This document shows, piece after piece, positions 22,156 to 62,486 of a DNA stretch of 64,000 nt; the stretch's first letter is position 1, and each line of letters starts with the position of its first letter. The position numbers and the translations under genes were made by a program. The notes beneath the pieces were generated by a model. The model saw nothing but the letters and a program-made list of their open reading frames with translations. It made no database searches and was not told where the DNA came from. The stretch covers positions 121,178 through 185,177 of the IMG/VR virus record IMGVR_UViG_3300032132_000754. One strand, written 5' to 3'. The DNA is from a virus.

Positions 22156-23238
22156 ATGGATTTAAACGAAGAGCTTCTAAAAGACATTATGGAACGCCAA
22201 GAGAGTAACTGGGCTAAACGGGACTCTAAAGACGGTAAAAAACAAGTAAGCCAGGAATACTCGGCCCATAAAAAACGGCGAAATGCAACTGGAGCCGCGC
22301 GAGAGCAGAACAAGCGAGTTCGAGGCACAGAAAAAGGCCACAAACAAGCCGCAGCCCGTGATAAAGTTCGCCGAGCTAAAGAACAAGGCGAGATTAAACA
22401 ACCTAAAACTTGTCCAAAATGCGGCACTGCTACTAGCGATATGATTTTCGACCACGATAAGAGCTATGAAAAATCAGATCAACTCGCTGGAAGATTCATG
22501 TGTAGGACGTGTCACAATAGAAAGGATAACAACAAACCAGGAGACAAATCCACTAAAGGAAAGCGTCGCCCTGGCATTATTGGCAAATCCAAAGGCGATA
22601 CTGAAATCGCTAAGACTAAAGCCGAGGCCGTCAGAAAAGAAATTTCACCAATCCAAGAAATTATCAACATTATGGATGATGGTTGGGACGTAATGAACGA
22701 AGGTTGGGACGAATTAGGAATTGAAGACCCCAATTTGCCAGGAGACGAGCCACAGGGCGCTGATTGCATGCGATTTAGAGAAGAATTCTTCAAAGAATGG
22801 GAAGAATGGGAAGGCCCAGACGCCGAATTCGAAGCCGAAGAATTTAGTGAAGAACACCATGAACGTTGTAAAGGCTGCCAGACATGGCTTGAAGTCGAAA
22901 TGAACCAAGTAGAAAAACCTTTTATGGATTGGTTATTCAATCGACTAACCGACGATCCAGAAGAGGTAAAGCGCCTAAAACAAAATGTCGAGCGATCCAG
23001 ACGACGGGAAGCGAAGTCTCAAAATAATAAAGCGCCTGCCGAGCCCCCAGCAGGTTGGCAAATGGATTGCAACGCCGCGAGAGACATCATCGATCAATTA
23101 GATCAAAACAATCCTAAAGAATGGCAGCAAATGGAGCAACATACTCGAACGTGCGAAAATTGCACACATTATCTGCATCAAACAGGGCCCTATGAAGGCA
23201 AGCTTGGATTCAATCCAGACGATTTAGATTACGATTGA
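22156..23238 (+). CDS. Multidomain protein: HNH-like Zn domain plus two HxxxCxxC (zf-HC2/ZAS-like) motifs
   Basis: CPKCG...DHDKSY...MCRTCHN; DC..F...HHERCKGC and MDC...HTRTCENC; CAAAAATAC upstream. Confidence 0.55.
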   Translation: MDLNEELLKDIMERQESNWAKRDSKDGKKQVSQEYSAHKKRRNATGAAREQNKRVRGTEKGHKQAAARDKVRRAKEQGEIKQPKTCPKCGTATSDMIFDHDKSYEKSDQLAGRFMCRTCHNRKDNNKPGDKSTKGKRRPGIIGKSKGDTEIAKTKAEAVRKEISPIQEIINIMDDGWDVMNEGWDELGIEDPNLPGDEPQGADCMRFREEFFKEWEEWEGPDAEFEAEEFSEEHHERCKGCQTWLEVEMNQVEKPFMDWLFNRLTDDPEEVKRLKQNVERSRRREAKSQNNKAPAEPPAGWQMDCNAARDIIDQLDQNNPKEWQQMEQHTRTCENCTHYLHQTGPYEGKLGFNPDDLDYD

Positions 23239-23582
23239 TGCAGATCGTATTTTCGGTACGTAACGATTGCACCATAAACACTATGGGTCAACACTGCGCC
23301 GAATTTTTCCCAGGACCATATCATATGGTTATAACAACTGGCAGCTCGTTCTAGTTTATCATCGACGGATTGTAGGCTACCAGGGCTTGTAACATCTATT
23401 ACTAAATCACTAGTAAAACGAGATTTAGCAGTCACTATAGTGTCTTCAAAAAAGAATTCCATAATTTCAAATGGACGCCCAGGGCGATTCATATGCATTA
23501 CAAAAACTTTATCGTTATTTCGAAAAACTCCGTTAATTTTATTCTTTAATAAATGCTCGTGAACAAGATCGATTGTATTCAT
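23229..23582 (-). CDS. DP-motif paralog family member
   Basis: N-term IDLVHEHLLKN; VIDVTSPGSLQSV; GTA 13 nt upstream. Confidence 0.6.
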   Translation of the reverse strand: MNTIDLVHEHLLKNKINGVFRNNDKVFVMHMNRPGRPFEIMEFFFEDTIVTAKSRFTSDLVIDVTSPGSLQSVDDKLERAASCYNHMIWSWEKFGAVLTHSVYGAIVTYRKYDLHQS

Positions 23583-23601
23583 ACAATTTAAATACTAAAC
23601 T

Positions 23602-24453
23602 TTATCTAACGTCTGGCAGATCTAAATCTGGAGCGTCGTAGTCGTCGTCATCATCATAATCGGGATGGTTAGATGAAATATGCGTAGAGCGGTGCACTCT
23701 CTGAACCTCCGGAGAATCTGTTTTACGTACTCGACAGGTAGCACAAATGGTGTCAGTAGTAAGGTAGCTGCCTCCGCCTGCTTTAGCGATGGCTGACAAC
23801 ATTACAACATTTTGTTCTGCACTAACGCCAAAGCAGAAGATTCCGATTTTTCCTTTTTTACGATCTGTTCGTGCTTTCTGCAATTTATCGATTAGAATTT
23901 TAACTTCTGACGGTTTCTTACCTTGAAAACTTGGATAAGTATTGTTCCCATCAGAGAAAAGAATAATAGTTAAATCATCACGATGAATATTTAATTCAAA
24001 TGCTTTTTGGATAGCTGAGCCAATATCAGTATAACTAGTACATCTTACTTTATTTAGAAAATCGTTAGCCGATTTCACTGCATTTAAACTGGGAAGCTTT
24101 GCCCATCCGGTCGGCGGTGGTTTTGGATCGTCTTTTTCTTTAAGACCTGCCCAGAAACTCATCTCGTTTAATGTAGATTGAAATGTGAACATGCTAAACA
24201 TGGCTTCGTCTGTAGGCATATGTAGTATGCCATTTACTTCGCGCATCGCCACTTTAAAACGGTCATTTCTACCCATTGAAGTAGAACAATCAAATAAGAA
24301 AATAATGTTCTTTGTTACACGTTGTTTGGTTCTAACAACGTGTGTGATAATTGGTTTAGTTGGTGGTTTAGCCCCTTGCTTGGTATCTTGGCCACCACCT
24401 CCGGGGCAAGCAATACCAAATAACAAGGCTAATACTAGAAAAATCTTCTTCAT
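23602..24453 (-). CDS. vWA-domain putative lipoprotein
   Basis: Signal peptide ending LFGIAC; MIDAS DCSTS, T, and LFSDG. Confidence 0.75.
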   Translation of the reverse strand: MKKIFLVLALLFGIACPGGGGQDTKQGAKPPTKPIITHVVRTKQRVTKNIIFLFDCSTSMGRNDRFKVAMREVNGILHMPTDEAMFSMFTFQSTLNEMSFWAGLKEKDDPKPPPTGWAKLPSLNAVKSANDFLNKVRCTSYTDIGSAIQKAFELNIHRDDLTIILFSDGNNTYPSFQGKKPSEVKILIDKLQKARTDRKKGKIGIFCFGVSAEQNVVMLSAIAKAGGGSYLTTDTICATCRVRKTDSPEVQRVHRSTHISSNHPDYDDDDDYDAPDLDLPDVR

Positions 24454-24462
24454 ATTTGGCGT

Positions 24463-24663
24463 TTATAAAGACCTGTATACATGACCAATATCCTTAATAT
24501 GCTCAACTTGAACGTCATTATCGATTTCTTTATCTGATAAGAATTGAACGGTTAAGTTGAACCCGTTGCATTGAATGCTGGCTATGTTCGTACCTTCCGG
24601 TAAGTCAAGCCAATCCTCAAGTTGTGTAATCGGAATTGTGAACGAAGCCCGATTTAGTTCCAT
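24463..24663 (-). CDS. Hypothetical protein
   Basis: 66 aa, TAATG coupling. Confidence 0.45.
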   Translation of the reverse strand: MELNRASFTIPITQLEDWLDLPEGTNIASIQCNGFNLTVQFLSDKEIDNDVQVEHIKDIGHVYRSL

Positions 24664-25103
24664 TAAATGGCTGCTAATAGAAGAGGTAGAAGGAAACGGG
24701 CCCCAGCTGTCCCGATAGCTTTGGCAATTTCTAAAGCTTGTTCTTTTGCCTTTTCACGGTCTACTTCTTCTTGGGCAACATCGACCGCATCCCTAAGCAT
24801 ACCATCGATGAGGTCATCCGCCGAAGAAGCCCCAGATCTAATAAATTCTAACTGGGCTTCATGCGTATCGCCACGGGCTACGTGAGAAACGAATAATGTT
24901 AAACCTTTGCCGCCTAGCAACACTAGACTAGATTTATGGCTCTTTACAATATCTAGAGCTTGTGTTGCTCCTTGTTTAAGAAATTCGTCATCGGTTTTAT
25001 CAATTAATCTGCCTAACTCGCCAGCTAAGTCATCAAACCATTCATCGCTATTGTCGTCATATTGACCTTGCAATGCGTCAAGTGCTTGTCTAAATAATGA
25101 CAT
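24663..25103 (-). CDS. Hypothetical protein with hydrophobic C-terminus
   Basis: Ends GARFLLPLLLAAI; coupled to the lipoprotein gene. Confidence 0.55.
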   Translation of the reverse strand: MSLFRQALDALQGQYDDNSDEWFDDLAGELGRLIDKTDDEFLKQGATQALDIVKSHKSSLVLLGGKGLTLFVSHVARGDTHEAQLEFIRSGASSADDLIDGMLRDAVDVAQEEVDREKAKEQALEIAKAIGTAGARFLLPLLLAAI

Positions 25104-29679: not shown

Positions 29680-29909
29680 ACCTGAATAAGAAGCGTGGAT
29701 TTATTATACGCGGATTCGATTTTCATACTGGAGCAGAGACTGCTCCATTTTTCCGAGTTTATAACGAAGATAAGTCGTTCACCGATTATGATATCGCCAT
29801 CCATGATCTAGAAGTAGAGATCTGTGACCCAAACAATTTTTACACCATCCGTGAGCGAGAAGGAAAAAGGAAGTATTTAGACTATTCAGATAAGGTCCTC
29901 GGAAAATGA
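29676..29909 (+). CDS. Hypothetical protein
   Basis: ATGA-coupled small [19 protein letters not shown]. Confidence 0.55.
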
Positions 29910-30232
29910 GTGACGAGATGAATCTTGACGATGTCATAGAATTTGTTTGCGAGGATCTCGGATTAAAGTACGGCGGCAAGCATTCTAGGGGTTTCACTAG
30001 AACGATCGAGTCTGAGCATGGTTTAATTTATCTAAACATCTTTAAAACTTCGCTCGATATCACGAGTTTTAGTATGAAAATCCCTGGTTCTAATGTTAAA
30101 ACTAGGAAGATGGATATTTCTCCGAGTTGGCACGTCGATATTCACGACCCAACATCTCTTGAGAATGTTTCAGATGCCATTAAATCAATTGTGAAATTTT
30201 CAAAAGAACAACAACAAGAGCTAATAGTATGA
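29906..30232 (+). CDS. DP-motif paralog family member
   Basis: LDDVIEFVCEDLGL; VDIHDPTSLENV. Confidence 0.65.
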   Translation: MSDEMNLDDVIEFVCEDLGLKYGGKHSRGFTRTIESEHGLIYLNIFKTSLDITSFSMKIPGSNVKTRKMDISPSWHVDIHDPTSLENVSDAIKSIVKFSKEQQQELIV

Positions 30233-34874: not shown

Positions 34875-35154
34875 GATATACCGTGTATTGTGATATGGTA
34901 TCTTTATTTCCAACCGTTATAATATTGAAATTCTGCTCTATTGCAATTATTTTGCCATATCGGAGAGCGCGGTTTACAGCGTCCATCTGAATTTGGATTT
35001 CTTTAGGAGTCATCGGATGTTCTAAACTAGATGACCCAACTATAAACCTTTCTACCCATTTTATTTCCGGTACGTCCCAATCTGTCATAGTGTATATTCT
35101 ACTCCTGCTAACAGGTGGTTTGGTCTGAACATGCCACCCACTAGCACGTGTCAC
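34840..35154 (-). CDS. Hypothetical protein
   Basis: 104 aa, GTGA coupling. Confidence 0.5.
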   Translation of the reverse strand: MTRASGWHVQTKPPVSRSRIYTMTDWDVPEIKWVERFIVGSSSLEHPMTPKEIQIQMDAVNRALRYGKIIAIEQNFNIITVGNKDTISQYTVYHVGFRNRPAGK

Positions 35155-35465
35155 AACCAGGCCGCAATCTTGTCTAAGCTATCCTCCTCATACAAGTTTA
35201 CACTGATATTATCGTGGTCTGCTATCTCCAGCTTGCGACGACCGCCACGGACAGCCGGGACAGTCGGATACGGCCTCCGCATCTTCTGTCGCGCTTTGTA
35301 AATCCGAAGACTACACGTCTTGTTTTCGAAAAATACGGAATAAGAGTTAAGTCCCTTCTTAAAGCGAATGAGACCATTCCATTTTCCTTTTTCATCAGGA
35401 GGATCAACTAAGAACAAGCCTTCTCCCTTTAAAAAATCGATAATTAGCTCTTCAGACGGTATCAC
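35151..35465 (-). CDS. DP-motif paralog family member (divergent)
   Basis: EELIIDFLKGEGL; VNLYEEDSLDKIAAWL. Confidence 0.55.
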   Translation of the reverse strand: MIPSEELIIDFLKGEGLFLVDPPDEKGKWNGLIRFKKGLNSYSVFFENKTCSLRIYKARQKMRRPYPTVPAVRGGRRKLEIADHDNISVNLYEEDSLDKIAAWL

Positions 35466-36335: not shown

Positions 36336-37265
36336 ATGAAAAAAGACAGCAAAATATTAGTGTTAGGATCCGGAGGGCTGGTCGGCGGATCCGTCATTCG
36401 AAAATTGAAGACTGCAGGATACTCAAAAATCCTAACGCCTAAAAGGAAAGAACTTGACTTAATCATACAAAAAGATGTCCTTGATTATTTCGCCGCTAAT
36501 CAACCGGAATATGTATTTCTTGCCGCAGCTAAAGTCGGTGGAATCATGGCTAATGCCACGTACCCCGCCGACTTTATTTACCAGAACCTCATGGTACAAA
36601 ATAATGTAATTCACGTATCTGCGGTAACAAATGTCAAGAAATTATTATTCTTAGGAAGCTCCTGCATTTATCCAAGGGAGTGCCCCCAGCCAATTAAAGA
36701 AGAATATTTGCTAAGCGGACATTTAGAACAAACCAACAAAGCATATGCTATGGCTAAAATCGCTGGTCTAACAATGTGCGAAGCTTACAATAAGCAGTAT
36801 GGTTTAAACGCTATCTCTGTTATGCCATGCAATTTATATGGACCAGGTGACAATTTCGATCTTAATAACAGCCATGTATTGCCAGCGTTACTAAGGAAAT
36901 TTCACGAAGCTAAACCAGATGATCCGGTTACTGTATGGGGAACAGGTTCACCATTGCGTGAATTCCTTTATATTGAAGATCTAGCTGACGCTTTGCATTT
37001 CTTGATGTTGAATTACGACGATCCTAGCCCAATTAACGTTGGCTCCGGAATGGATTTAAAGATTAAGGATCTTGCTCTTCTCATACAAGAAGTGACTGGG
37101 CATTCCGGGGAAATATTTTGGGATACAAGCAAACCGAATGGGACCCCACGGAAAGTCTTAGACATTTCGAAAATTAAGTCTCTTGGATGGATGCCAGAGA
37201 TAAGTTTAAGAGAAGGCATTAGAAAAACATATGCCTGGTATCTTGCTAAACGATTATCACAATGA
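36336..37265 (+). CDS. fcl: GDP-L-fucose synthase
   Basis: GSGGLVG, LAAAKVGGI.AN, FLGSSCIYP, YAMAK, NLYGPGDNF...SHVLPALL, WGTGSPLREFLY. Confidence 0.93.
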   Translation: MKKDSKILVLGSGGLVGGSVIRKLKTAGYSKILTPKRKELDLIIQKDVLDYFAANQPEYVFLAAAKVGGIMANATYPADFIYQNLMVQNNVIHVSAVTNVKKLLFLGSSCIYPRECPQPIKEEYLLSGHLEQTNKAYAMAKIAGLTMCEAYNKQYGLNAISVMPCNLYGPGDNFDLNNSHVLPALLRKFHEAKPDDPVTVWGTGSPLREFLYIEDLADALHFLMLNYDDPSPINVGSGMDLKIKDLALLIQEVTGHSGEIFWDTSKPNGTPRKVLDISKIKSLGWMPEISLREGIRKTYAWYLAKRLSQ

Positions 37266-37704
37266 AACATACTTTGTGGTAAATCATAGCTCAGAACTTG
37301 AAAGTGCATGCAAACGCGGGATCTTAGAACTAATCATACCACAACTGCGCACCAAGTTTAAAAAATATATTCAAGTTACATGGCCGACAGAAGTAAGAGA
37401 AGAACATAACGATTACTCTTATGATTTCACTCATGCTCACATAGCAATAAAAAACCCAGAGCCCAAAGCCAAAGCCTTTTTCGCCGACGTGCGATTGCAT
37501 TTCGATGCCATGCCTGGCACCTTGACGGTTGAGCTATCAAACAATGAACACCGCTCGTTACGCGTTGGTACCCGGACAGTAGGGTACCCGCTACAATACC
37601 AGACGCAACACATATCATTGACAGATCCCGATTGCCACTTAAAAGCAATACGGTTGATCTCTGATAATATCATTCAATTTACCAGAAATGTGGAATCGCC
37701 ATGA
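37231..37704 (+). CDS. DP-motif paralog family member
   Basis: C-terminal ISLTDPDCHLKAI. Confidence 0.55.
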   Translation: MPGILLNDYHNETYFVVNHSSELESACKRGILELIIPQLRTKFKKYIQVTWPTEVREEHNDYSYDFTHAHIAIKNPEPKAKAFFADVRLHFDAMPGTLTVELSNNEHRSLRVGTRTVGYPLQYQTQHISLTDPDCHLKAIRLISDNIIQFTRNVESP

Positions 37705-38637: not shown

Positions 38638-38970
38638 ATGGACACTTCTCTACAACACCCAGAATTTATAGAGAGCGTACTCAGATCGTATCTGGGTAGG
38701 TATCAAAACCAATTCTACTTCAAAAAACTTTTAGACGACAGCATTGTTTTGATTACTGACCCGCCACCAAGGCTTGCTATTACACTGTCTTCTACCCAAA
38801 ATGGCGTGTTCATAGTCCTTGCTGAATGGGTAGTCGTAGACCAGATGTCCGAAATGGCTGGTGTATGTGAATTTGAAGCGTACGAGCTTGAAAGCATCCC
38901 TATTGAAGACCCTAACGGATTCTTCAAGATGGAGGAAAGGGTGGCTAAATCGTTACTTAGCCCAACATAA
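38638..38970 (+). CDS. DP-motif paralog family member (divergent)
   Basis: IESVLRSYLG; IPIEDPNGFFKME. Confidence 0.55.
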   Translation: MDTSLQHPEFIESVLRSYLGRYQNQFYFKKLLDDSIVLITDPPPRLAITLSSTQNGVFIVLAEWVVVDQMSEMAGVCEFEAYELESIPIEDPNGFFKMEERVAKSLLSPT

Positions 38971-38971: not shown

Positions 38972-39334
38972 ATGCGATTAATTGATAACTACCTACCAGA
39001 AGACGAGATATTAAAACTTTATATCGGTAGACATTTACCGCATTTTCAAAAACAAGTTGTAATGGCATCAAGCCCCACGGCCAGGGGCAGAGTCCAAATA
39101 ACAGTATATTATCACGTTTTTGACAAATTTAAGTACAGTATTAGCTATACCAGAACAAGATCAGCGGTTAGATTGGCTCTAAAAGAACAATTTGATGATC
39201 CAAATGCCGCGTATGCCAAGCCGCATTATTTAACAATGGAACACTGGCTTTACCCGATCCATGATCCAGAAGGGCCTATCAATCTTCAGAAGGAGATTTG
39301 TAAACACTCCGCCATCCTGCGCTCTTCGGTTTAA
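38972..39334 (+). CDS. DP-motif paralog family member (divergent)
   Basis: Start moved to ATG 38972; DEILKLYIG; YPIHDPEGPINLQ. Confidence 0.5.
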   Translation: MRLIDNYLPEDEILKLYIGRHLPHFQKQVVMASSPTARGRVQITVYYHVFDKFKYSISYTRTRSAVRLALKEQFDDPNAAYAKPHYLTMEHWLYPIHDPEGPINLQKEICKHSAILRSSV

Positions 39335-39698
39335 ACAACGGATGTCTGTCCGGGGCCTTACGAGCAGACTTGCCTAACCATGGCGCTTTGCCAACATTGC
39401 AGTGTTTACAGCGATAATTCTTCTTGGTGTTATCCCAACCTTTATAGAGGTCTTTTCTACAAAACCATTGTTTTTTATAACAATGGGGGCATGTGACTTT
39501 AAACCCATATGGAATTAAACGGAGTTTAGTCTTCCATTCAATAGCAGTAGCTTTGGCGCGTTTTGTTCCTACTCTAACTTCAAATAGGTCCTTCATGTAC
39601 CACCCTATCCTAACCACTGGGTAGAGCAGGATGGATATCAATCCTGCTAATACTATATACTCAATGGTCATCTGGAGAGTAATAACTTCCACAAACAA
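39279..39698 (-). CDS. Membrane protein with C4 zinc finger
   Basis: N-terminal TM helix, CPHC...CKHC. Confidence 0.55.
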   Translation of the reverse strand: MFVEVITLQMTIEYIVLAGLISILLYPVVRIGWYMKDLFEVRVGTKRAKATAIEWKTKLRLIPYGFKVTCPHCYKKQWFCRKDLYKGWDNTKKNYRCKHCNVGKAPWLGKSARKAPDRHPLFKPKSAGWRSVYKSPSED

Positions 39699-40092
39699 AA
39701 CCGCCGCTTGGGTTAGCGTAGCCAGAGTTTATAGTCTTGTTTGGTTTTGAATTTAAATTTTGATAGCCATATTGGCTTGTGGTCTGAAGAGTAACGCTAT
39801 ATCCAGGCGATGCTTGGTAACCATAAAGCATCAGACTATCATCTTCGTAAAGAGTTGGGCTAATGAGGTATCCACGGATCTTATTGAGGCTTTTGGAGTC
39901 GTATAGGTCGACTTCAACGCGCTCTGGTCCTAGAAAGACTTTGGTCTCGTGGTCGAAGAAAAGGCGTTTCATGCCCTTTTCTTTCATCTGTACTATCATC
40001 GCGCCCTGCGTGTCCTTTGTGGCTTCACGCGTGGTCATGATGCGGTGTCCGGTATTAAACGCTAGGTCCTGTAAGACGTCTACTATGTCCAT
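39661..40092 (-). CDS. DP-motif paralog family member with C-terminal extension
   Basis: IVDVLQDLAFNTG; VDLYDSKSLNKI. Confidence 0.55.
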   Translation of the reverse strand: MDIVDVLQDLAFNTGHRIMTTREATKDTQGAMIVQMKEKGMKRLFFDHETKVFLGPERVEVDLYDSKSLNKIRGYLISPTLYEDDSLMLYGYQASPGYSVTLQTTSQYGYQNLNSKPNKTINSGYANPSGGFVCGSYYSPDDH

Positions 40093-40396
40093 TGATATCT
40101 AACTTCCCAATCCACTCTTTTAGTATATTTATCGATTGGGGGTCATGAAGATCAATCTCTGTACATTCTTCAATGTCAACAACGTCAGCATCTAAAGGAT
40201 CGGGCGTTGGGCCGTTAATTAGATAAACATTGAGGGTGGTGCCATCGACAGAGTAAATCGATATGATTTTACTTTCGTCTTTGTTTTCTAAAACAACGCT
40301 ATCGTTTTCAAAATAAGCATATTTAGCCAACCCAAGCTCACTAATTAAAGCAATGACGCATTTCGAGGCGTCATCAATATTAGTTAGACCGTCCAT
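40055..40396 (-). CDS. DP-motif paralog family member
   Basis: IALISELGL; IDLHDPQSINILKEW. Confidence 0.65.
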   Translation of the reverse strand: MDGLTNIDDASKCVIALISELGLAKYAYFENDSVVLENKDESKIISIYSVDGTTLNVYLINGPTPDPLDADVVDIEECTEIDLHDPQSINILKEWIGKLDINGHSRRLTGPSV

Positions 40397-40670
40397 TGCC
40401 GTTCTCCAATATCGTCTGAAATTTATCTAAACTAGCTGGGTCAGTAACGTCCATATCAGTAATGACATCGCCTTCTCCAACATATTTTATCTTAGTTTCA
40501 GATACAAAAAACATCCGTACACCACTTAAAACGGGGAATCCAGCTTTTATAAACATTACCGACTTTTTGGCGTTGGAGTCGGCGTAATGTTCTGGTGGAC
40601 GTATCGCCCCGCTACATTCAACAAAACCATGTTCAAGGGCAAGCTCAATGAGCAGTGACTTTAAGTCCAT
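40380..40670 (-). CDS. DP-motif paralog family member
   Basis: LKSLLIELALEHGF; MDVTDPASLDKF. Confidence 0.65.
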   Translation of the reverse strand: MDLKSLLIELALEHGFVECSGAIRPPEHYADSNAKKSVMFIKAGFPVLSGVRMFFVSETKIKYVGEGDVITDMDVTDPASLDKFQTILENGNGRSN

Positions 40671-40947
40671 TTATGAAATTCTCAAGGGCTAAATTTATTT
40701 TATCAAAACATTGCGGGTCAGCTATGCGAGCAAGCTCTACCTTAGGACCTTTGTTTACATAGATATATACGAAGCTATCATCATGTGTCAATTGAATCGA
40801 TTGCTTAGGATTTTCCCAAATTGGACGATCAAAAGTCCTAATGATAATAGTTCTATCTCTTTTAACACGAACCAAATCATGTTTCTGGAGCCAGTAAGAC
40901 ATACCAAACTGTTTAAAGTGCTCTTCTAACAAATCAAGAAACGTCAC
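40645..40947 (-). CDS. DP-motif paralog family member
   Basis: GTG 40947 with GTA 13 nt upstream; LDLLEEHFKQFG; RIADPQCFDKI. Confidence 0.65.
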   Translation of the reverse strand: MTFLDLLEEHFKQFGMSYWLQKHDLVRVKRDRTIIIRTFDRPIWENPKQSIQLTHDDSFVYIYVNKGPKVELARIADPQCFDKINLALENFINGLKVTAH

Positions 40948-41408: not shown

Positions 41409-41833
41409 AATCTCTTACCGGCTCCATCTATATCCCAATCGCCATCTAATTCAATTCGGCCAGTAACAAACCCTAGACAAAGTTCGCGTTCCTGACGCCG
41501 ACGGACATATCGGCTGTTGCTAAAATCCCAACGTGGACCACGCTGACGCGGCTGTCCTTTTTTAGACTTCCCTCGCCTCCCAAGAGTTTGGTGACAGCGA
41601 TGACGACCGATCATAGCTTCATTGGGGCCCCAGGCGCAATCCATCGTGCCAAGCTGCCAATTATACCATCCGATATCACATCTGGATAATAGCCTAGCGC
41701 CCCAAGCGAATTTGCCTTCATTAGGCTTTAATAAGTCGCGGTCTTCCCATTTACCTTGTTTTAATTTCAATCTCTTTTTAGCAACGAGATTCGCTTTTAT
41801 TAGCCGCTCCCCTCTCATAATGAATCTCTCCAA
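41405..41833 (-). CDS. Hypothetical basic protein
   Basis: 142 aa, Arg/Lys-rich. Confidence 0.45.
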   Translation of the reverse strand: MERFIMRGERLIKANLVAKKRLKLKQGKWEDRDLLKPNEGKFAWGARLLSRCDIGWYNWQLGTMDCAWGPNEAMIGRHRCHQTLGRRGKSKKGQPRQRGPRWDFSNSRYVRRRQERELCLGFVTGRIELDGDWDIDGAGKRF

Positions 41834-42225
41834 CGTTTGCCAGGTTTTTTCTTAGCAAATTCTTTAAACCATACTTCGACGTCATCGTAAAGAGTTGGAC
41901 TAGCTAAACCGAATTTCTTAATTGCTACGCCCCAACCTGGCGAATTGATATAAAACAGCCATTTATCTGACTTAATTGCCGGAATTTTTAGGCCACCCCA
42001 AATAAATCTCTTACTTGTTTTGTAGTAACGCCAAATTATCCCACCAGACATGGGCCTCTTGCGCGTGCGGGAAACACCATTTAACAGCCTATAGCCGATT
42101 TGCTCCTCATATTCTTGTTGAAAATGATGGTCTACAATGACTAATTTTTTGTCGGAAGACGGAGAGAAATGCTCAACGAAATCTTCAAATAGCATCTCGT
42201 TGAGTGCGTCGTCTAAGGCGGTCAT
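41815..42225 (-). CDS. DP-motif paralog family member (divergent)
   Basis: EMLFEDFVEHF; FGLASPTLYDDVEVWF. Confidence 0.55.
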   Translation of the reverse strand: MTALDDALNEMLFEDFVEHFSPSSDKKLVIVDHHFQQEYEEQIGYRLLNGVSRTRKRPMSGGIIWRYYKTSKRFIWGGLKIPAIKSDKWLFYINSPGWGVAIKKFGLASPTLYDDVEVWFKEFAKKKPGKRWRDSL

Positions 42226-52540: not shown

Positions 52541-53923
52541 CTAAGACCAAAGAAGGTCCCTAACACCCTTCAAATCCTGGTCTACCAGAACTTCCCCATC
52601 CCTAAAGACTTCCCTAAGAAGATCCTTTTCATCAGCACCCATCGTACGCTCCTTAATAGTATCGTACCCAAAAGAATCCTTAATTAAAGCCAAACGACCC
52701 CTCTTAGAATCCTTAGTCGGATCACTAGCAGGACGCTTAAACACATCCCGCTCCTGACCATCAACCACAACACTACTGCACTTGAAAGCGAACCTCTGAG
52801 TATCGCGGTTCAACCTCTGTAGCAAACCGCCACCCATACCAAATGCGATGTTATCCAAAGACCAACCAGTCCGAAGCATAGCATCAACTACCTTCTTAAT
52901 AGTATCAGGCGTGCAACCATCACCCTGGATCACACGAACATGATCATCCAAGACCTTATAGCCCTTCTTATTCGTATAAGTACCAAACGCCTCACCAAGA
53001 CGATTTAGCACATTTAATACCATAGGGACAATCTCACCACTATCAGGCCGAACAACCAAAGTGCCATCCCTATTAAGAATTTTACCCTTTAAGTGTTCAC
53101 CCCAAAGTTCAGTGCAAGCCCTATCGATATCGAATGAGTCACTAACGCAAGCCACCAATCCAGTAGGGTACTGATCAAGCATATTCCTAAATGCTTCAAC
53201 CTCTCCATGTTCACCCCAACTAGTAATAGTACTATGCTCCGAAGCCGGGATCGAGAAACCAGCCATCTCAGCATTATAGTATTTCTTGCCAGTCGTTAAC
53301 GCAGCAATAGTATCCGTACCCATGAAGTTGCAAAGATGAGCCAATCCACCAATTCCAGCAGATTCTACAGAGGTTGAACCCCTAAAACCGAAATCGTGAA
53401 GTTTAAAAGGAAGACCATCAAGAGTATCACAAGATGTCTCCATTCCCTTTGCAATTAAATTTCTGACATAATTAGAAATTGTAGCAACAGTCGAAGGGTA
53501 CCAAACCATCACGAGAAGTGTCTCAAGATAATTCGGCAACCAATAGCACTCAGGGTCAGTATTCTCGATAGTCATCATGACATTAGACTCAGGAACAGCC
53601 ATACCCTCAGGCACAGCCTTGATGCTCACAGGTAGCTTGCCACCATGCTTCTCAAGAATATGTCTCCATCCGGCCTCATTGAAAGCTCCACCGACGCCAC
53701 CCATATGGGCATCAGAAAACTCCTTGGCCTCCTGGATGAATTCCTCAGTGACTACTACACCTTCAAGGTACTTCTTTAAGAAATACTGCAATCCGAAGAA
53801 CACAGTGTCCGGGTATTCAGACCCAACACGAGATTCGAAGTAAGAATAGACCTTACTAGTCCCAGGCGGGTACTGCTTGTAGTGAGAAAGTTTATATGAA
53901 TCAGTTAACAAAAGAATAGACAT
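52541..53923 (-). CDS. nadV: Nicotinamide phosphoribosyltransferase (Nampt)
   Basis: LLTDSYKLSH..QYP, KLHDFGFRG, GTDT, SIPASEHST, VSDS, VVRPDSG, IQGDG, FGMGGGLLQ. Confidence 0.93.
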   Translation of the reverse strand: MSILLLTDSYKLSHYKQYPPGTSKVYSYFESRVGSEYPDTVFFGLQYFLKKYLEGVVVTEEFIQEAKEFSDAHMGGVGGAFNEAGWRHILEKHGGKLPVSIKAVPEGMAVPESNVMMTIENTDPECYWLPNYLETLLVMVWYPSTVATISNYVRNLIAKGMETSCDTLDGLPFKLHDFGFRGSTSVESAGIGGLAHLCNFMGTDTIAALTTGKKYYNAEMAGFSIPASEHSTITSWGEHGEVEAFRNMLDQYPTGLVACVSDSFDIDRACTELWGEHLKGKILNRDGTLVVRPDSGEIVPMVLNVLNRLGEAFGTYTNKKGYKVLDDHVRVIQGDGCTPDTIKKVVDAMLRTGWSLDNIAFGMGGGLLQRLNRDTQRFAFKCSSVVVDGQERDVFKRPASDPTKDSKRGRLALIKDSFGYDTIKERTMGADEKDLLREVFRDGEVLVDQDLKGVRDLLWS

Positions 53924-53955
53924 TTTAATCCCCTTTCTGAGTAGATTAAATATTG

Positions 53956-54861
53956 TTAGATTTTAAGGTGTTCTTTTACCATCCTCAAAATAGGTAGATG
54001 CTGTTCTAACAGCAAATTTTCATTGAAATTATCCAAATTGAACCATTTCGCCTCGAACAAATCATCACCAGCATGCAGCTTGCCCCAAGCATACTTAGCA
54101 ACAAATACCGTTGACATTAGACCATCAACCTGGCCTCTATAACGCCAATCGTCAATTTTAGTAGACCCAACGTACTCCCAATCGTTCAACTCAATGTCGC
54201 CAAGCTCCTCACGAGCCTCACGCTGAGCTACCCGAAGGAGACTCTTGTCGCCGGGATCAGCGAACCCACCAGGGAAACGCCACTTATCCTTAGGATCATT
54301 CTTCTTACGACCCAAAGCAATACTATTGCCCTGTAACACAGCAACATCAACAACGCTGTAAACCGCAGGATACTTATTGAACGCCGCGTAAATCACCCCA
54401 CGACGGAACTCTTCGGAGAGTCTAACATCATTAGAGCATTCTTTACGAACTTTAGTACCGGAAATGCGGATCTTATTACTTAATTCAACCGTCTGATGTT
54501 TCCCTTTGTAATGAGGGATAAAACCATCGCGGGACCCATAAAGCAATGGGGTGCCAATAGAAAACGTTTCATTAATTTTCGTATCGACGACTCTAGACCA
54601 ATCCTTGTCGCTAGGCATATCATGCAGCGGCAACACATTAATGTCAGGATAGGCTTCCTTGATCATTAACATTCTAGTGTGGTAATCTAAGGGATCATGT
54701 CTGGTGACAAGAATGCCAGGCGTACTACCCATTAGGATTAGTACTTTATCGTGCCTAGATTTAACAAAATCGATGAGTTCGATATGCCCATCGTGAAGGG
54801 TCGGAACCTGAAAACGTCCGACGATTACACCAATTGCGGTGTCTGGTAGCTTAACTTCCAC
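53956..54861 (-). CDS. Bifunctional NMN adenylyltransferase / Nudix hydrolase (NadM-Nudix, NatV-like)
   Basis: VGRFQ..HDGH, ISGT.VR; Nudix box FPGG...AQREAREELG. Confidence 0.9.
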   Translation of the reverse strand: MEVKLPDTAIGVIVGRFQVPTLHDGHIELIDFVKSRHDKVLILMGSTPGILVTRHDPLDYHTRMLMIKEAYPDINVLPLHDMPSDKDWSRVVDTKINETFSIGTPLLYGSRDGFIPHYKGKHQTVELSNKIRISGTKVRKECSNDVRLSEEFRRGVIYAAFNKYPAVYSVVDVAVLQGNSIALGRKKNDPKDKWRFPGGFADPGDKSLLRVAQREAREELGDIELNDWEYVGSTKIDDWRYRGQVDGLMSTVFVAKYAWGKLHAGDDLFEAKWFNLDNFNENLLLEQHLPILRMVKEHLKI

Positions 54862-54923: not shown

Positions 54924-55235
54924 TTAAATACGTCTGAGTAAATCCTCAAATTTTACAAAACACGTCGGATCAGCCAAGTCTACCTTATAATGCTTCACCA
55001 TCCCAGGATCAACAGGACAATAAATAGAAGCAACACGATTCATTAAACTGACAGATCTAATCAAGAGTTTAGCCTTCCAAAACTTAACATTGATAGAAAT
55101 GCCATCTTTAATATAGCGATATTCAAAACTAATATCACTTAAAAACCCGTTTTGGTTTTCCGCAGACCAACCGCATCTAATACAAGTTTCCTCGACATAA
55201 TCGCGAACGGCCATCATCCCGATATCAGGATTCAT
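54924..55235 (-). CDS. DP-motif paralog family member
   Basis: DYVEETCIRCGW; VDLADPTCFVKF. Confidence 0.65.
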   Translation of the reverse strand: MNPDIGMMAVRDYVEETCIRCGWSAENQNGFLSDISFEYRYIKDGISINVKFWKAKLLIRSVSLMNRVASIYCPVDPGMVKHYKVDLADPTCFVKFEDLLRRI

Positions 55236-55570
55236 CTGCTAATTCCCATATAAAAATCAACGAATTTCTTCTTAGCATTGTTGATAGATTGAGGATCGTG
55301 TAAATCCTCTTCAAACACTATCTTCCTTGGAGGTAAATTTAAGGGACCCTCCGGACCAGCGTTAGTAAAATCTTCAATGCCGACCCACTCACACTTGAAA
55401 TTAGTGTGGCGAATGGTAAACTGATACCACGGTTTTTGATAATGCTTCTTAGTTCCAATTACACAATGATAAGTCTCACCGTCCATCTCGACTGAAAATT
55501 TGTTATCATCAAGTTCCAGATAAACAGGCCATTCGGTAAGAATTTGATTTAAAATTTTAGCATCAACCAT
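55232..55570 (-). CDS. DP-motif paralog family member
   Basis: ILNQILTEW; EDLHDPQSINNAK. Confidence 0.65.
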   Translation of the reverse strand: MVDAKILNQILTEWPVYLELDDNKFSVEMDGETYHCVIGTKKHYQKPWYQFTIRHTNFKCEWVGIEDFTNAGPEGPLNLPPRKIVFEEDLHDPQSINNAKKKFVDFYMGISR

Positions 55571-55898
55571 TAGATATCCTGTATGAACTCGACAAAAATG
55601 TATCTTTGGAGCTATTTATGCTTTCAGGATCCGTAAGATCAACTGAAAAAACATCAATTTGAAACGGAACAGACCAAGGATCAGTATGCTTATCAATCCA
55701 ACGACACCTAAAAGTAGTACCATGGATCACAAAAATGAATTTACCACTACTATATTTCAAGGTAGATTCAGCAAGACCAGGGCTATAAGGTTGTGTAACA
55801 ACACCCTGATGATCCACACCCCACTCCGTTAAAATCTCAAGGAGAATCGCACCAGAAGTGATTTTATCACTATTTGACGGCATTCCAAATTTCTTCAA
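55563..55898 (-). CDS. DP-motif paralog family member
   Basis: ILLEILTEWG; VDLTDPESINSSK; visibly close to 55232..55570. Confidence 0.65.
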   Translation of the reverse strand: MKKFGMPSNSDKITSGAILLEILTEWGVDHQGVVTQPYSPGLAESTLKYSSGKFIFVIHGTTFRCRWIDKHTDPWSVPFQIDVFSVDLTDPESINSSKDTFLSSSYRISNG

Positions 55899-56304
55899 AA
55901 CAATCAGGAGAATAAGGATTAACTTTTAACTCATCCCATTCCCACTGCTCATATCCACGATAAGGAGGCTTACTGTCACCACGCCTAATATACTCACCAA
56001 GAAACACCTTCATACTAGTCTTAGATAAGTAAACCTGATAAACAATATCTTTAACTTTCCTAACATTAATATTAGTTTTATTGAAACCAAGTCTAACCCA
56101 ATTTAACGGATTGAAAGTAACCGCTTCCCGTTTCATAACAATGAAAGAACCCTCGTTGGAAACACCGAAAAAATGCGGAGGCCCTAATCTATCCTTGCAC
56201 CATTCGTACATCGCTCCACTAAACAAAACACACGGCATAATTGGTGAAAATCCTGGGTCTCTATAGACCGTCATATGGCGGTAAGGATGCGGAAGATTGT
56301 TCAT
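55870..56304 (-). CDS. DP-motif paralog family member
   Basis: AMYEWCKDRLG; VNPYSPDCFEEI. Confidence 0.6.
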   Translation of the reverse strand: MNNLPHPYRHMTVYRDPGFSPIMPCVLFSGAMYEWCKDRLGPPHFFGVSNEGSFIVMKREAVTFNPLNWVRLGFNKTNINVRKVKDIVYQVYLSKTSMKVFLGEYIRRGDSKPPYRGYEQWEWDELKVNPYSPDCFEEIWNAVK

Positions 56305-57512: not shown

Positions 57513-57887
57513 CTTCTTACGACCAGCACGCTCACGCTTAATGTAATCAGCAAATTTCTCAGAACCCATGTCTTCTTCTAGAGAAATACCGCAGTACATG
57601 CAAATGCGATCCTCAGGCCCGTAAGGCTCTGAGACCCACTTCCACGGGTGCTGCCGACAATCAGAACAGGATGGGCACTGATAACCCTCCTCGCTAACCC
57701 ACTGGTGTTGGCACGATACACACTCCCAACGTGCCTTACAATTAGGATGCAAAAACGTGTGGATGACCTTATGGCCCATATAAGCCATCCTTGGAATAAG
57801 ACGATTCATCGCATCGTCTTCACTTTCGCCGGATTTAACAGCCTTCTCGACTTCATCCATAATGTTTTTCATAGCGTCTGGGTGCAT
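57495..57887 (-). CDS. Cys-rich zinc-finger protein
   Basis: CVSC...CPSC, C..H...CMYCG. Confidence 0.6.
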   Translation of the reverse strand: MHPDAMKNIMDEVEKAVKSGESEDDAMNRLIPRMAYMGHKVIHTFLHPNCKARWECVSCQHQWVSEEGYQCPSCSDCRQHPWKWVSEPYGPEDRICMYCGISLEEDMGSEKFADYIKRERAGRKKLDSAE

Positions 57888-58162
57888 TAGTATTCCTCCA
57901 TAATTCTGCGGTGTTCTCTAATAGCTTTATGCAACTTATCGAAAAATTCAGGATCACACAAATCACCTGTAAAAGCTCCTAAACCTTTAAGAGCGAACAG
58001 GGAAGTATGGACCTTACTTCCTCTGACAGTGATTTTCTCTTGCCTCAAAGGTCCAAGATCAATGACGATAAGCTGTTCACGTTTTTGAACATCAATATGG
58101 CTGCGAACGATTGTGCAACCTATTTCTCTAAGCCAATCCTCTAAGATTTCTATAGCGAGCAT
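57887..58162 (-). CDS. DP-motif paralog family member
   Basis: IEILEDWLREIG; GDLCDPEFFDKL; GTA 13 nt upstream. Confidence 0.7.
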   Translation of the reverse strand: MLAIEILEDWLREIGCTIVRSHIDVQKREQLIVIDLGPLRQEKITVRGSKVHTSLFALKGLGAFTGDLCDPEFFDKLHKAIREHRRIMEEY

Positions 58163-58295: not shown

Positions 58296-58300
58296 GCGAA

Positions 58301-58597
58301 TCAGAGACCATGAACTTTAAAAGCACTAACTAACATCCACTTTAACTTATCGAAAAACAAAGGATCCACCATATTAAGACCATAGAACTTACCATCAATC
58401 TCAACACTAGACCCAAACCTGACCTTACTATCCTCATAAACCACCAGCTTAATATTGAAAGCTAAATTATCAAAATCAACAGGCCGTTTAGGTCTGACCG
58501 CCACCATATCAGTATCACCATAAGACGGCGTCTTAACCACCCACGCAGACCAACCCTGCTCCTCACACCACTGAATTAAAACATCGGAGGCCGTCAT
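58301..58597 (-). CDS. DP-motif paralog family member
   Basis: DVLIQWCEEQGW; LNMVDPLFFDKL. Confidence 0.7.
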   Translation of the reverse strand: MTASDVLIQWCEEQGWSAWVVKTPSYGDTDMVAVRPKRPVDFDNLAFNIKLVVYEDSKVRFGSSVEIDGKFYGLNMVDPLFFDKLKWMLVSAFKVHGL

Positions 58598-58890
58598 TCC
58601 TTACCCAAATCCGCCAATGTCATGGGACCCAGTTTAATAATCGTGTAGAGCCTGTCGAAAAACTCAGGGCTATGTATATCCATAGGTAGGTAGCCGCCTT
58701 TAACCCGGCCATCAAATATCCACCCGACGAAAATCGTCGTGGACGGCCAAGACTTACCACCGAGAGTAATCACGAAGCGGCTCCCAGGGTGTGCTGGAGC
58801 TTCAAAAAACATAGTATCGACGCCTAGCTCCAAACAAGGCTCCCAACCCATCCCTTTAAACCACTCCCCAATCAGATCAAGGGGACCCAT
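58594..58890 (-). CDS. DP-motif paralog family member
   Basis: Start MGPL; DLIGEWFKGMGW; MDIHSPEFFDRL. Confidence 0.7.
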   Translation of the reverse strand: MGPLDLIGEWFKGMGWEPCLELGVDTMFFEAPAHPGSRFVITLGGKSWPSTTIFVGWIFDGRVKGGYLPMDIHSPEFFDRLYTIIKLGPMTLADLGKE

Positions 58891-59176
58891 AAATGCCACG
58901 CTTATCCAACACAACCTTCAACTTATCAAAAGAATCAGGATCAGCCAAATCAATCTCATCAACAAAACCAATACTCAACGAACCATTCTTCATAGCAGGA
59001 GTATAAAGAATCTTAGTCCCCTCAATAGCAACTACAATATTCCGACCCTTAACAAAACCGGTGATTAACCACGTCTGATTCTGGACCTCCTCACCAGGCC
59101 CAAAATCCATAAACTTCAAACCATTCTCAACGCACCAAAAACGCAAAATATCAATTGTACGCAAGGAAGATCCCAT
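58877..59176 (-). CDS. DP-motif paralog family member
   Basis: DILRFWCVENGL; IDLADPDSFDKL. Confidence 0.7.
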   Translation of the reverse strand: MGSSLRTIDILRFWCVENGLKFMDFGPGEEVQNQTWLITGFVKGRNIVVAIEGTKILYTPAMKNGSLSIGFVDEIDLADPDSFDKLKVVLDKRGIYGSP

Positions 59177-59441
59177 TTAAAAACTGCCCTAACTTATTAA
59201 AACACTCAGGATCTGTCAGATACAGACAATCCACAGGCGTATTGCGATGATGAACTTCAACCCTAGTAGGATTACCAGGCCCACCCATACACAAAATCAC
59301 AGTCTGAAAATCATTGCTATGATTCCCATGCGTCTTAACCTCAATTCTACTAGGTCTAGAAGCCGGTCTAAAACGCCTCTGCATATGGCACTTCCAGCCA
59401 TTCTCACGCAACCACTCCAACATTAACTCATGTACTTCCAT
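59151..59441 (-). CDS. DP-motif paralog family member
   Basis: ELMLEWLRENGW; LYLTDPECFNKL. Confidence 0.7.
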   Translation of the reverse strand: MEVHELMLEWLRENGWKCHMQRRFRPASRPSRIEVKTHGNHSNDFQTVILCMGGPGNPTRVEVHHRNTPVDCLYLTDPECFNKLGQFLNGIFLAYN

Positions 59442-59724
59442 CTAACAATCTCTTCAAAGCCACCTCTAGCTTAACAAAAAACTCCGGATCATAAACATTA
59501 AAATAATCCCACTTACGAAAACGCTTATCAATCTCATCAACCATAGTATCTTCCCTATTCGTAGCAGGAAGCTTAACCCTAGTCCTAAAAATACCAACTA
59601 CAGTATTATACCTAGAATTTTCCCTCTTAACACTAATCCCATACCACGCAATGCCGCCATCGATCTCATAAAGAGTCCAACCACGCTCCTCACACCACTC
59701 ATGCAGCAGACAGACTAAATCCAT
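59428..59724 (-). CDS. DP-motif paralog family member
   Basis: LLHEWCEERGW; FNVYDPEFFVKL. Confidence 0.7.
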   Translation of the reverse strand: MDLVCLLHEWCEERGWTLYEIDGGIAWYGISVKRENSRYNTVVGIFRTRVKLPATNREDTMVDEIDKRFRKWDYFNVYDPEFFVKLEVALKRLLDGST

Positions 59725-59968
59725 AATTCAACAACGCCATCCTCAAATCATTAAAACACTTAGGGTCAGTAGCTTGAAATCTATGGCTGCGAACGTTTCC
59801 TTGACCCCACAACACTATTTCGTCCTTATAAACAGAAATAGCAACTCTATGCATGTCACAATGAAACTCCCCAGGGCGATGCTCCCCAGGGCCATCATCA
59901 AGTTCGTAGAAATGTTCATCCCAATCTTGCTCAATCAACCACTCTTTAAACAAATCATTTAAAGTCAT
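59699..59968 (-). CDS. DP-motif paralog family member
   Basis: DLFKEWLIEQDW; FQATDPKCFNDL. Confidence 0.7.
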   Translation of the reverse strand: MTLNDLFKEWLIEQDWDEHFYELDDGPGEHRPGEFHCDMHRVAISVYKDEIVLWGQGNVRSHRFQATDPKCFNDLRMALLNYGFSLSAA

Positions 59969-60270
59969 CCACGGCCCAAGTATACCTCAAGGTCATTAAA
60001 AAACGTAGGACTAGCCATATCAAACTCATGGCCATCCACAGTAGCCTTAGACCCCATAATAAAAATCCTATGCGCCAAAGCCGCCTCTAAACACAACCCC
60101 ATCTGCTCCAAAATATTACCATTAGGATCAGCGTCAACCTTAGTTATCCTATCATAATTAAAAGTAATACGATGCATCAACCCCAGACCGAAACTAATAG
60201 ACTCCCTATGAATCTGAACGGGTTCATACTTATCCTTAATCCAATCATATAAAATATCAGCCCCGTTCAC
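59965..60270 (-). CDS. DP-motif paralog family member
   Basis: Likely GTG start 60270; DILYDWIKD; FDMASPTFFNDL. Confidence 0.68.
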   Translation of the reverse strand: MNGADILYDWIKDKYEPVQIHRESISFGLGLMHRITFNYDRITKVDADPNGNILEQMGLCLEAALAHRIFIMGSKATVDGHEFDMASPTFFNDLEVYLGRG

Positions 60271-60595
60271 CCAACACCCGCTTAAGTAACCCATCAAGTT
60301 CAATAAAGAACCCAGGGTCCGTCAAGTTCAACACCTTAGACTTATGGTCGACAATATTCAGATTTAAATCCAAATCATACGTCTTAACCCTACGCGCCTT
60401 ATGGCCAATCTCCCACGTCACCAAAACAGAAGTAGGACTATTCTTACCAGCCTTAATAGTCACCTTAACCTTAGGGAAACCCCACCCCAAATTCTTAACA
60501 GTAATAAAACGATACCGACCCGGCTCAACAGGCGGCAAATGATGCTTCCACCCATTCTCCACCAACCACTCAGCTATCAAATTAATGCCAGTCAT
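60257..60595 (-). CDS. DP-motif paralog family member
   Basis: NLIAEWLVENGW; LNLTDPGFFIEL. Confidence 0.7.
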   Translation of the reverse strand: MTGINLIAEWLVENGWKHHLPPVEPGRYRFITVKNLGWGFPKVKVTIKAGKNSPTSVLVTWEIGHKARRVKTYDLDLNLNIVDHKSKVLNLTDPGFFIELDGLLKRVLGERG

Positions 60596-60969
60596 AAAGC
60601 GCCTTTATCATAACTATAAATCTGATTCTTAAGAATGACATCCCACTCATACCGAATACGTTCCCCAAGCTTATCAAAAAAATGCGGTTCCGCCAAATTC
60701 CAGATAACCGGGATTTTCGTCTTAATTAAAACATCCAACGGCACTAATTTAGAACCATCATTAGAATCAAGCAACGGGTCCTCCCCAGTACCAAAAACCA
60801 CCAACCTAACCTGCTTACGACCAGAAGTTAACAACCCCTCAACAGACTTATCCCAAATTTCAATCCACATACCATGAGAACTAATATAGCTCTTATCCAT
60901 ACGACGAACCCCGAAACCCTGGTCTTCCGCCCATTGCATAATTAGATCAACTGGGGACATATTAACCAC
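60592..60969 (-). CDS. DP-motif paralog family member
   Basis: DLIMQWAEDQGF; WNLAEPHFFDKL. Confidence 0.7.
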   Translation of the reverse strand: MVNMSPVDLIMQWAEDQGFGVRRMDKSYISSHGMWIEIWDKSVEGLLTSGRKQVRLVVFGTGEDPLLDSNDGSKLVPLDVLIKTKIPVIWNLAEPHFFDKLGERIRYEWDVILKNQIYSYDKGAL

Positions 60970-61225
60970 GCCAAGCCTCCACAGCTAAACCAAGGTCATC
61001 AAAAAACTTAGGGTCATACAAATTACCATTAAATTGAGTGCCATTATAAGCCCTAAAATTACTAAAAACATTTAAAGAAGAATCCGCCACGAAGTAGTAC
61101 TGCATATTCCCCAAATGCAACTCAACCGTATGGGACCCCTCCTTAACTACGTTACCGTCTCCGAAAACCTCACCCAAGTACTGAGCAACACCATCAATCG
61201 CTTCCATCTTTATCCTCCGGAACAC
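60962..61225 (-). CDS. DP-motif paralog family member
   Basis: IDGVAQYLGEVFG; GNLYDPKFFDDL. Confidence 0.68.
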   Translation of the reverse strand: MFRRIKMEAIDGVAQYLGEVFGDGNVVKEGSHTVELHLGNMQYYFVADSSLNVFSNFRAYNGTQFNGNLYDPKFFDDLGLAVEAWRG

Positions 61226-61430: not shown

Positions 61431-61780
61431 ATATTCAACCCTTCCTCAATATGCGCATGGTACCAAGCGCCATTCCTACTCTTTTCCCCCCACACCCAAG
61501 AAAACAATTCATCGAAAAAGTCAGGAGACGTCATCCGCAAATCAATGACAGAACTACCCTGCAAATCATCGCTACGAACCCTAATTCTAACCCAATCCCC
61601 CTGAATATATAAAACCCGATGAGAATCCCCATCCGACTCACACCGCTTTAAAGCAATAACCCAACTAGTAAGCCTAGAACCACCACCAGGCCGAGAATTC
61701 ACAACAAACTTCCCCAACTTCATCTCATGAATCCACTCATGAATAATAGCCTGCGGCGTCAACCTCGCTTCAAGTGTCAT
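61427..61780 (-). CDS. DP-motif paralog family member
   Basis: AIIHEWIHEM; LRMTSPDFFDEL. Confidence 0.68.
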   Translation of the reverse strand: MTLEARLTPQAIIHEWIHEMKLGKFVVNSRPGGGSRLTSWVIALKRCESDGDSHRVLYIQGDWVRIRVRSDDLQGSSVIDLRMTSPDFFDELFSWVWGEKSRNGAWYHAHIEEGLNI

Positions 61781-61789
61781 CCTATCTCC

Positions 61790-62059
61790 CTAATGCTTAA
61801 ATAAACTCTTTGGTGGAGATTTAATTGGCGGCAACGGTTTAGGCCAATTAGGTGGCATCTTCAAATGAGAAAAATCCGGGGGACCCAAACAACTCTCCCC
61901 GCACGACCAACCCTTATAAGTCTTCCTAAACCCATGTTTAGTAATAGCCGCCCAAAAATCATCCTCAACCCCATCCGCCCAATCCTCATCAGCCGCCCGA
62001 ACTGGACCATTGATCCTCTTCGAACACGAGCTACACTTAACCTGTAAAGCATACATCAC
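61790..62059 (-). CDS. Small zinc-ribbon protein
   Basis: CSSC...WSCGESC, Pro-rich tail. Confidence 0.55.
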   Translation of the reverse strand: MMYALQVKCSSCSKRINGPVRAADEDWADGVEDDFWAAITKHGFRKTYKGWSCGESCLGPPDFSHLKMPPNWPKPLPPIKSPPKSLFKH

Positions 62060-62127
62060 TGACTATCCGCGAAAACCATCAGGACAATAAAAACAACGAA
62101 AAGTAGCAGGCAGAAGTCAGCAAACAT
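62056..62127 (-). CDS. Possible 23-aa membrane peptide
   Basis: MFADFCLLLFVVFIVLMVFADSQ, GAGGT upstream, GTGA overlap with the next gene. Confidence 0.4.
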   Translation of the reverse strand: MFADFCLLLFVVFIVLMVFADSQ

Positions 62128-62228
62128 GTGTTTCTCACTACCTCTAAAATACCCCGTGTCGTGAGACGTTAATTATATTTAGAGAAATAACCCAATAAGA
62201 AACATAATATCCATCGTATGTTAAGATA

Positions 62229-62486
62229 ATGGAAACTTGGAAATTGTTAGAAGAATGGGTTTTAGAAAAACGCCCTAAAACCACTTTAATCCATTATAGA
62301 AAGGCTCGCAACAGCGCAGAAGAAAACATTTTAGAGATAGGGAGATACGACGTCGTTATTGACAAAACCGCAGTAAAAATCGCCCTAAGAGTAGACCAAA
62401 ATTTCAGCAAAATAAAATGGGTAAATCTAGATCTCTGCGACCCTGACTTTTTTGCCAAATTCGGCAAAAGCTTAAATGTCCTATAA
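62229..62486 (+). CDS. DP-motif paralog family member
   Basis: KLLEEWVLE; LDLCDPDFFAKF; GTA 13 nt upstream. Confidence 0.7.
   Translation: METWKLLEEWVLEKRPKTTLIHYRKARNSAEENILEIGRYDVVIDKTAVKIALRVDQNFSKIKWVNLDLCDPDFFAKFGKSLNVL

Follow-up and report, generated by a model that had tools for sequence, protein, structure and literature searches.

Introduction

Expansion of a small protein into tens of copies is described for Bacillus phage G, in which a zinc ribbon present in ~ 35 copies is presented as a lineage-specific expansion (PMC7824862). The subject of this work is a comparable array in another jumbo phage, the DP family of small proteins, named here for a C-terminal DP motif and encoded in the last 64 kb (64 000 nucleotides, 'the window') of the 185 177-bp virus record IMGVR_UViG_3300032132_000754; 'genome' counts refer to the whole record. 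The DP family differs from the phage G ribbon, as described in that source, in having another fold and no metal ligands, in being found clade-wide at about 0–2 to 23 or more copies per genome, and in that a different expanded family takes its place in the closest relative. Many paralogues with a copy number that varies among relatives, as expected of a lineage-specific expansion, are found here.

Other described systems share the shape or the behaviour rather than the sequence. The YbjN and type III chaperone (TY-chaperone) proteins have a strand meander with terminal helices, as do our models of two DP proteins, but their central helix and a strand are described as making the dimer interface (PMC5398634, PMC9503650), and neither of our models has a helix between strands. 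DP members (81–157 residues) also show no sequence similarity to YbjN and TY-Chap2, and lie in phage arrays rather than as single bacterial genes. T7 Gp1.2, a 10-kDa phage protein of the same general shape, is reported to inhibit a host enzyme, a dGTPase, through its helix (PMC9478638) and is a functional analogue. In T4, a counter-defence gene is described as being amplified through recombination (PMC9391042). Large paralogue expansions have precedents in jumbo phages and the arrangement of the fold is common, which limits the surprise; a literature search found no description of the family, however. The DP family is real, unnamed and clade-wide, with large swings in copy number. Its best explanation, to which we give about an even chance, is that each copy would act as a stand-alone binder, and we infer both the targets and an anti-host role.

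A paralogous family of small proteins

The initial annotation had listed about 29 open reading frames (ORFs) with a shared motif, partly in clusters, and these were borne out on re-checking, at 81–157 residues instead of the 85–160 given. Together the 29 genes (Table 1) take up ~ 9.7 kb of the window. At least 24 of them, and probably up to 29, form one paralogous family. A strict form of the DP pattern occurs in 8 of the 254 genome ORFs kept (shuffled sequences: mean 0.012, maximum 1 in 500) and a relaxed form in 19 (shuffles: mean 1.5, maximum 7), so that the motif, which might have proved no commoner than in shuffled ORFs, survives this comparison. When each of the 22 core members is left out in turn, a profile of the remaining 21 still finds it (E ≤ 0.013).

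The signal lies at both ends. The N-terminal 24 residues, with the DP region excluded, rank 19 of the 22 core members above all 85 other small ORFs, in keeping with the amphipathic helix that had been noted at the start of most members, and the C-terminal motif region does so for all 22. The middle alone places none of the 22 above those ORFs, and the earlier impression of unrelated middles is upheld. The DP motif was taken to be constant and to sit at or near the C-terminus: as a region it recurs in every core member, but the strict pattern fits only eight, and it lies 10–30 residues from the end in most proteins but 50 in 23229 and 77 in 39661 (members are designated by their first position).

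An iterated profile recovers 24 window members and one further gene (genome 46671–46997) at E < 0.001, included sequences being part of the model that scores them; no decoy made by reversal falls below E 0.05. It misses 35151, 37231, 38638, 38972 and 41815 even at E < 1. Four of these had been flagged as weak; the fifth so flagged, 39661, is found, and 37231, which had not been flagged, is missed. For two of the five the closest relative, G001, provides support: 38972 aligns with the gene at the same position there with a score that none of 500 shuffles reached, and the G001 gene between the same two neighbours as 35151 carries a full D-L-x-D-P motif, although 14 of 500 shuffles reach its score. 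The remaining three (37231, 38638 and 41815) are only probable members.

Median pairwise identity is 16% (325 pairs), and the closest pair by BLAST, 55232 and 55563, reaches 32%. Members have no transmembrane segment, and their isoelectric points span 4.2–9.8. None of the 29 passes the Pfam cut-off, and among 72 aligned members no two match the same Pfam or PHROG family; the best PHROG match has E 0.022 and NCBIfam gives none. All members might have mapped to a characterised Pfam family, but no such match was found in these three collections.

Table 1. Members of the DP family and associated features of the window.
Feature	Positions	Strand	Basis or remark
Solitary member	23229..23582	-	Leave-one-out and iterated profile; GTAT-N-T-W 13 nt before ATG
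Member in thymidylate synthase/DHFR/adenylosuccinate lyase-like run	29906..30232	+	Profiles, Pfam neighbours
Degenerate member, no Pro	35151..35465	-	G001 positional orthologue with full motif
Probable member, motif only	37231..37704	+	Region scoring
Possible member, weak	38638..38970	+	Region scoring
Degenerate member	38972..39334	+	Syntenic orthologue in G001
Member, decayed motif (no Pro), long C-terminal tail	39661..40092	-	Iterated profile
Member	40055..40396	-	Leave-one-out and iterated profile
Member	40380..40670	-	Leave-one-out and iterated profile
Member, GTG start, GTAT-N-T-W at -13, head of overlapping chain 40645-40380-40055-39661	40645..40947	-	
Probable member, weak	41815..42225	-	Region scoring
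Member, GTAT-N-T-W at -13	42233..42670	-	Leave-one-out and iterated profile
Four-member cluster: 54924-55235, 55232-55570, 55563-55883, 55870-56304	54924..56304	-	Profiles
Member, GTAT-N-T-W at -13, AlphaFold-modelled	57887..58162	-	
Ten-member chain: 58301, 58594, 58877, 59151, 59428, 59699, 59965, 60257, 60592, 60962	58301..61207	-	
Member with two homologues elsewhere, 48-51% identity	61427..61780	-	
Member, divergent from array, GTAT-N-T-W at -13	62229..62486	+	
GTAT-N-T-W site	62146..62152	-	25 nt before hydrophobic 23-codon ORF 62056-62127
NAMPT and cytidylyltransferase-Nudix pair, context only	52541..54861	-	Pfam
GC-rich repeated unit, array edge, not member	62600..64000	+	Promoter-like repeat and 133-141-residue gene

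Predicted fold and the DP motif

AlphaFold models of two of the 29 members (57887 and 58877), whose middles have predicted local distance difference test (pLDDT) values of 45–79, predict two helices flanking an antiparallel sheet and so support, for these two, the single helix/β-sheet/helix scaffold first proposed. In 57887 the modelled elements are a helix (residues 3–13), four strands (22–27, 30–36, 43–49 and 64–67) and a second helix (73–90). The D-x-x-D-P string is predicted to link the last strand into the last helix. In an alignment of 87 of 93 domains, anchored on the Pro and hence making this residue invariant by construction, conservation is of hydrophobic residues at −5, −3, +3, +6 and +10 from the Pro and of D, S or N at −1; the N-helix also keeps hydrophobic residues at helical spacing. 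The core of these domains has no conserved polar or catalytic-type residue and the sheet no conserved basic one.

The profile of 72 sequences matches the segment D-V-T-D-Q-E-S-F-N-N-V-K-Q-W-L of Rab1A in register (E 0.003). We take this segment to be the link from strand 4 to helix 3 of the GTPase, a structural cap. The likeness, of the DP motif and the next helix to D-V-T-D-x-x-S-F, is one of local convergence: the members lack a P-loop or G-domain, Ras-family Pfam hits are absent, and the Rab alignments start at profile position 50–52 and cover one segment. The DP motif is thus probably structural, as judged from these sequence comparisons.

This bears on the role first suggested for the conserved ends, namely that both helices and the DP motif dock, F-box-like, on one common partner such as a protease, a polymerase or a clamp while the core recruits substrates. 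The two ends are indeed conserved independently, and Gp1.2 is an example of such a fold that binds through a helix. The conserved positions, however, are mostly hydrophobic at helical spacing or suited to capping, and the string recurs in Rab GTPases, neither of which supports docking. The motif has decayed, with loss of the Pro, in 35151, 39661 and the G001 orthologue of 38972, copy number falls to 1–3 in a complete relative, and none of 14 longer members carries an effector fusion at the Pfam level. We regard such an adaptor as unlikely.

Orphan immunity proteins or chaperones that bind a toxin, an effector or a phage protein, in the manner of type III chaperones, YbjN and TriTu, would share the meander and the terminal helices. 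Both models lack the YbjN dimer-interface helix between strands, however, no sequence match to these families was found, and the genes stand in runs of their own kind rather than paired with toxin or client genes; we rank this reading below the adaptor. Lower still we place binders of nucleic acid or RNA polymerase that would adjust transcription on the model of the MotA C-terminal domain in T4. A sheet and helices of this kind score no higher against such a fold than against unrelated ones, the sheet has no conserved basic residue, 16 of 31 members have an isoelectric point at or below 5.7 (within the full range given above), and Lys plus Arg amount to 12.0% versus 14.0% in other small ORFs. 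For frataxin/CyaY, identity to 4hs5 is 6–8%, fold scores are tied with those of unrelated folds, no Pfam profile match was obtained, and the members are not uniformly acidic.

Core divergence and copy number

Cores cannot be aligned between paralogues but are mostly kept between orthologues: in six of eight cross-genome orthologue pairs the core retains 36–83% identity, similar to the N-helix, and only 26–27% in the other two. From these alignments the core is specialised rather than hypervariable. The term hypervariable, used initially, holds for the difference between paralogues but is not supported in the sense of fast or cassette-driven change. The DNA around the motif does contain repeats that are 65–85% alike, but codons at the motif are identical in 202 of 366 comparisons against 198 expected, with no excess of synonymous identity; codon usage therefore explains the repeats, and cassette shuffling is not indicated.

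None of 31 members has a BLAST hit in five relatives. Of the 85 other small ORFs 44 do have one, and 41 of these hits are in G001, whose capsid protein is 89% identical to that of this phage. The members have no hit in G003, G004, G009 or G011 either. The iterated profile nevertheless finds copies at E < 0.001 in G006 (23), G001 (9, one spurious), G005 (8), G007 (8) and G002 (6). G011 was found through the DNA pattern of the motif (three IMG/VR hits) and belongs to the same clade, the gene at genome 33,765 (read as tail sheath) being 59% identical; the 72-sequence profile run only once, and so with less sensitivity than the iterated one, gives 19 copies there (23 at E < 0.05), one in the complete G003 (E < 0.05), one in G009 and two without a clear motif in G004. 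A nearest-neighbour test (46 of 93 versus 18 expected) favours genome-specific groups, whereas in the tree genome-specific clades do not separate; birth and death of paralogues is deduced mainly from copy number and missing orthologues. Copies would be gained through local duplication and lost within accessory regions. Searching 1.84 billion representatives yielded 38 hits. Of the 21 examined, three were the window's own, one was a spurious repeat and 17 were foreign, including a tandem double domain. Some of the G006 members (170–233 kb) are extended, either by an additional domain at the N-terminus or by a charged stretch at the C-terminus; of the 14 longer members, none passes the Pfam cut-off or has a known effector domain fused to it.

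G001 is syntenic with the window to about 39 kb and has four members at 330–333 kb. The slot that matches the large array of the window, ahead of a GC-rich region on the plus strand, is filled there (333386–344654) by 28 small zinc-ribbon-like genes of the type CRCG-H...W-[YF]-S; its right edge was matched by composition and strand, without a shared gene. CRCG-type segments number 40 in G001 versus 0–3 in the other eight records examined. One G001 frame (18670–19236 of the G001 sequence L121, minus strand) fuses a CRCGH segment to a DP-family domain, although an internal Met could start the second part.

An unrelated family in the matching slot of the closest relative, wide swings in copy number and the lack of BLAST-level orthologues between sequenced relatives are what would be expected if the array were mostly redundant or near-neutral filler from a duplication-prone region, most copies having no separate job. 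Yet at the low median identity given above all frames are intact, neighbours overlap and the scaffold is kept, orthologues preserve their core sequence, and one hit of the whole-library search has a tandem two-domain form. Of the explanations considered we judge filler the least probable.

Upstream motif

An ATG stands exactly 13 nt after GTAT-N-T-W at 15 of 139 genome sites, other distances accounting for 0–6; the same peak is present in G001 and G002 and absent from six other relatives. Genes with the motif include both DNA polymerase III alpha parts, DnaB, an SbcC/D-like pair and a helicase, as well as five DP members (Table 1). We suggest that GTAT-N-T-W is a leaderless, replication-class promoter, and its occurrence before both members and replication genes would also suit an adaptor. 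The site at 62146 is a possible promoter of the array; the 23-codon ORF downstream (minus strand) heads the minus-strand run into it. Window 3043 also has the motif at −13. The polymerase is split over two genes (genome 90163–91713 and 92623–95091), each with its own −13 motif.

Function of the family

As stand-alone binders, the DP proteins would need their conserved ends (both helices and the last strand with its cap) for the scaffold alone. Specificity would lie in the sheet and loops particular to each copy, as argued for YbjN proteins, and every copy would bind another protein within the infected cell. Production may fall in the replication phase, as the five members that share the upstream motif with replication genes suggest. 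The targets would be host proteins, for example defence enzymes, nucleotide enzymes or regulatory ones, and binding as such would inhibit them, as it does with T7 Gp1.2 and the dGTPase. An anti-defence role of the family would be plausible from context.

Other observations limit parts of this explanation. Against a purely structural role of the ends, Glu or Asp in the N-helix (56 of 74) and Lys at +5 (33 of 83) are over-represented and might together make up a common surface, as an adaptor would need. GTAT-N-T-W, a motif picked after looking at these genes, shows no significant excess on members (p = 0.056), and it precedes only one of 51 foreign members, so that replication-phase timing is suggested for this genome only.

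A wider proposal is more tentative, and we hold it to be doubtful: that a clade of 300–400 kb phages keeps a library of binders, each copy inhibiting a different host protein of defence or metabolism, and that the slot beside the GC-rich region is a nursery filled lineage by lineage, with the DP family here and in G011 and the CRCG family in G001. If each copy does bind its own host target, a virus would be reusing a single scaffold many times, and the array would be a compact, screenable source of counter-defence or host-takeover proteins; were the library real, the ~ 100 sequences gathered would be a ready panel of new anti-defence proteins. It also becomes testable whether an accessory genome is filled by expanding a few scaffolds or by importing unrelated genes.

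Array surroundings and source genome

Genes of the ten-member chain overlap or abut, with gaps of −26 to +1 nt. Beyond the array (62600–64000) the GC content rises to ~ 60% and a unit of TTGCG, a 17-nt spacer, TACAAT and a gene occurs twice, 743 nt apart; the contig ends in a further copy. These units are possibly early genes read by the polymerase of a GC-rich host. The array of G011 also borders a GC-rich block but is oriented towards it. The sequence CCACATAGCC has six copies in the GC-rich end (62615–63420) and none elsewhere in the genome, and the genome has three copies of the 10-mer GATGAACGCG (window 58213, 58285 and 62555), all in intergenic or edge positions flanking the array. The NAMPT and cytidylyltransferase-Nudix pair, which adjoins the 54.9–56.3 kb cluster and is also present in G002, we take to be a NARP2-like salvage pathway for nicotinamide adenine dinucleotide (NAD). 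NARP2 is described as countering NAD depletion (PMC12028318).

The record carries T4-like capsid, portal, terminase and prohead protease genes (Pfam). A 311 419-bp contig also encodes window proteins and complete relatives measure 320–395 kb, so the record is a fragment of a jumbo phage. The clade is uncultured, since the best identity of the capsid protein is only 41% among 50 697 annotated phage records, versus 72–91% for many capsid proteins in IMG/VR. Window 44100–63296 is spanned by a single contig of flat depth (21.4) from a marine metagenome run, the only one with this DNA and possibly the source sample; the two right-hand clusters are therefore not an assembly artefact.

Further phage-borne genes, identified with Pfam, are a NucS endonuclease (2081–2719, plus strand), an adenosine deaminase-like gene with an M24 peptidase (13412–15365, plus) and a peptide deformylase (35462–35926, minus). 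An N-terminal start M-K-L-x-h-h-x-E (h, hydrophobic) is common to otherwise unrelated ORFs at window 31828–32529 (plus), 35937–36323 (minus), 40977–41408 (plus) and 56757–57512 (plus) and at genome 42795 and 116406; these starts are reminiscent of the capsid-targeting leaders of T4.

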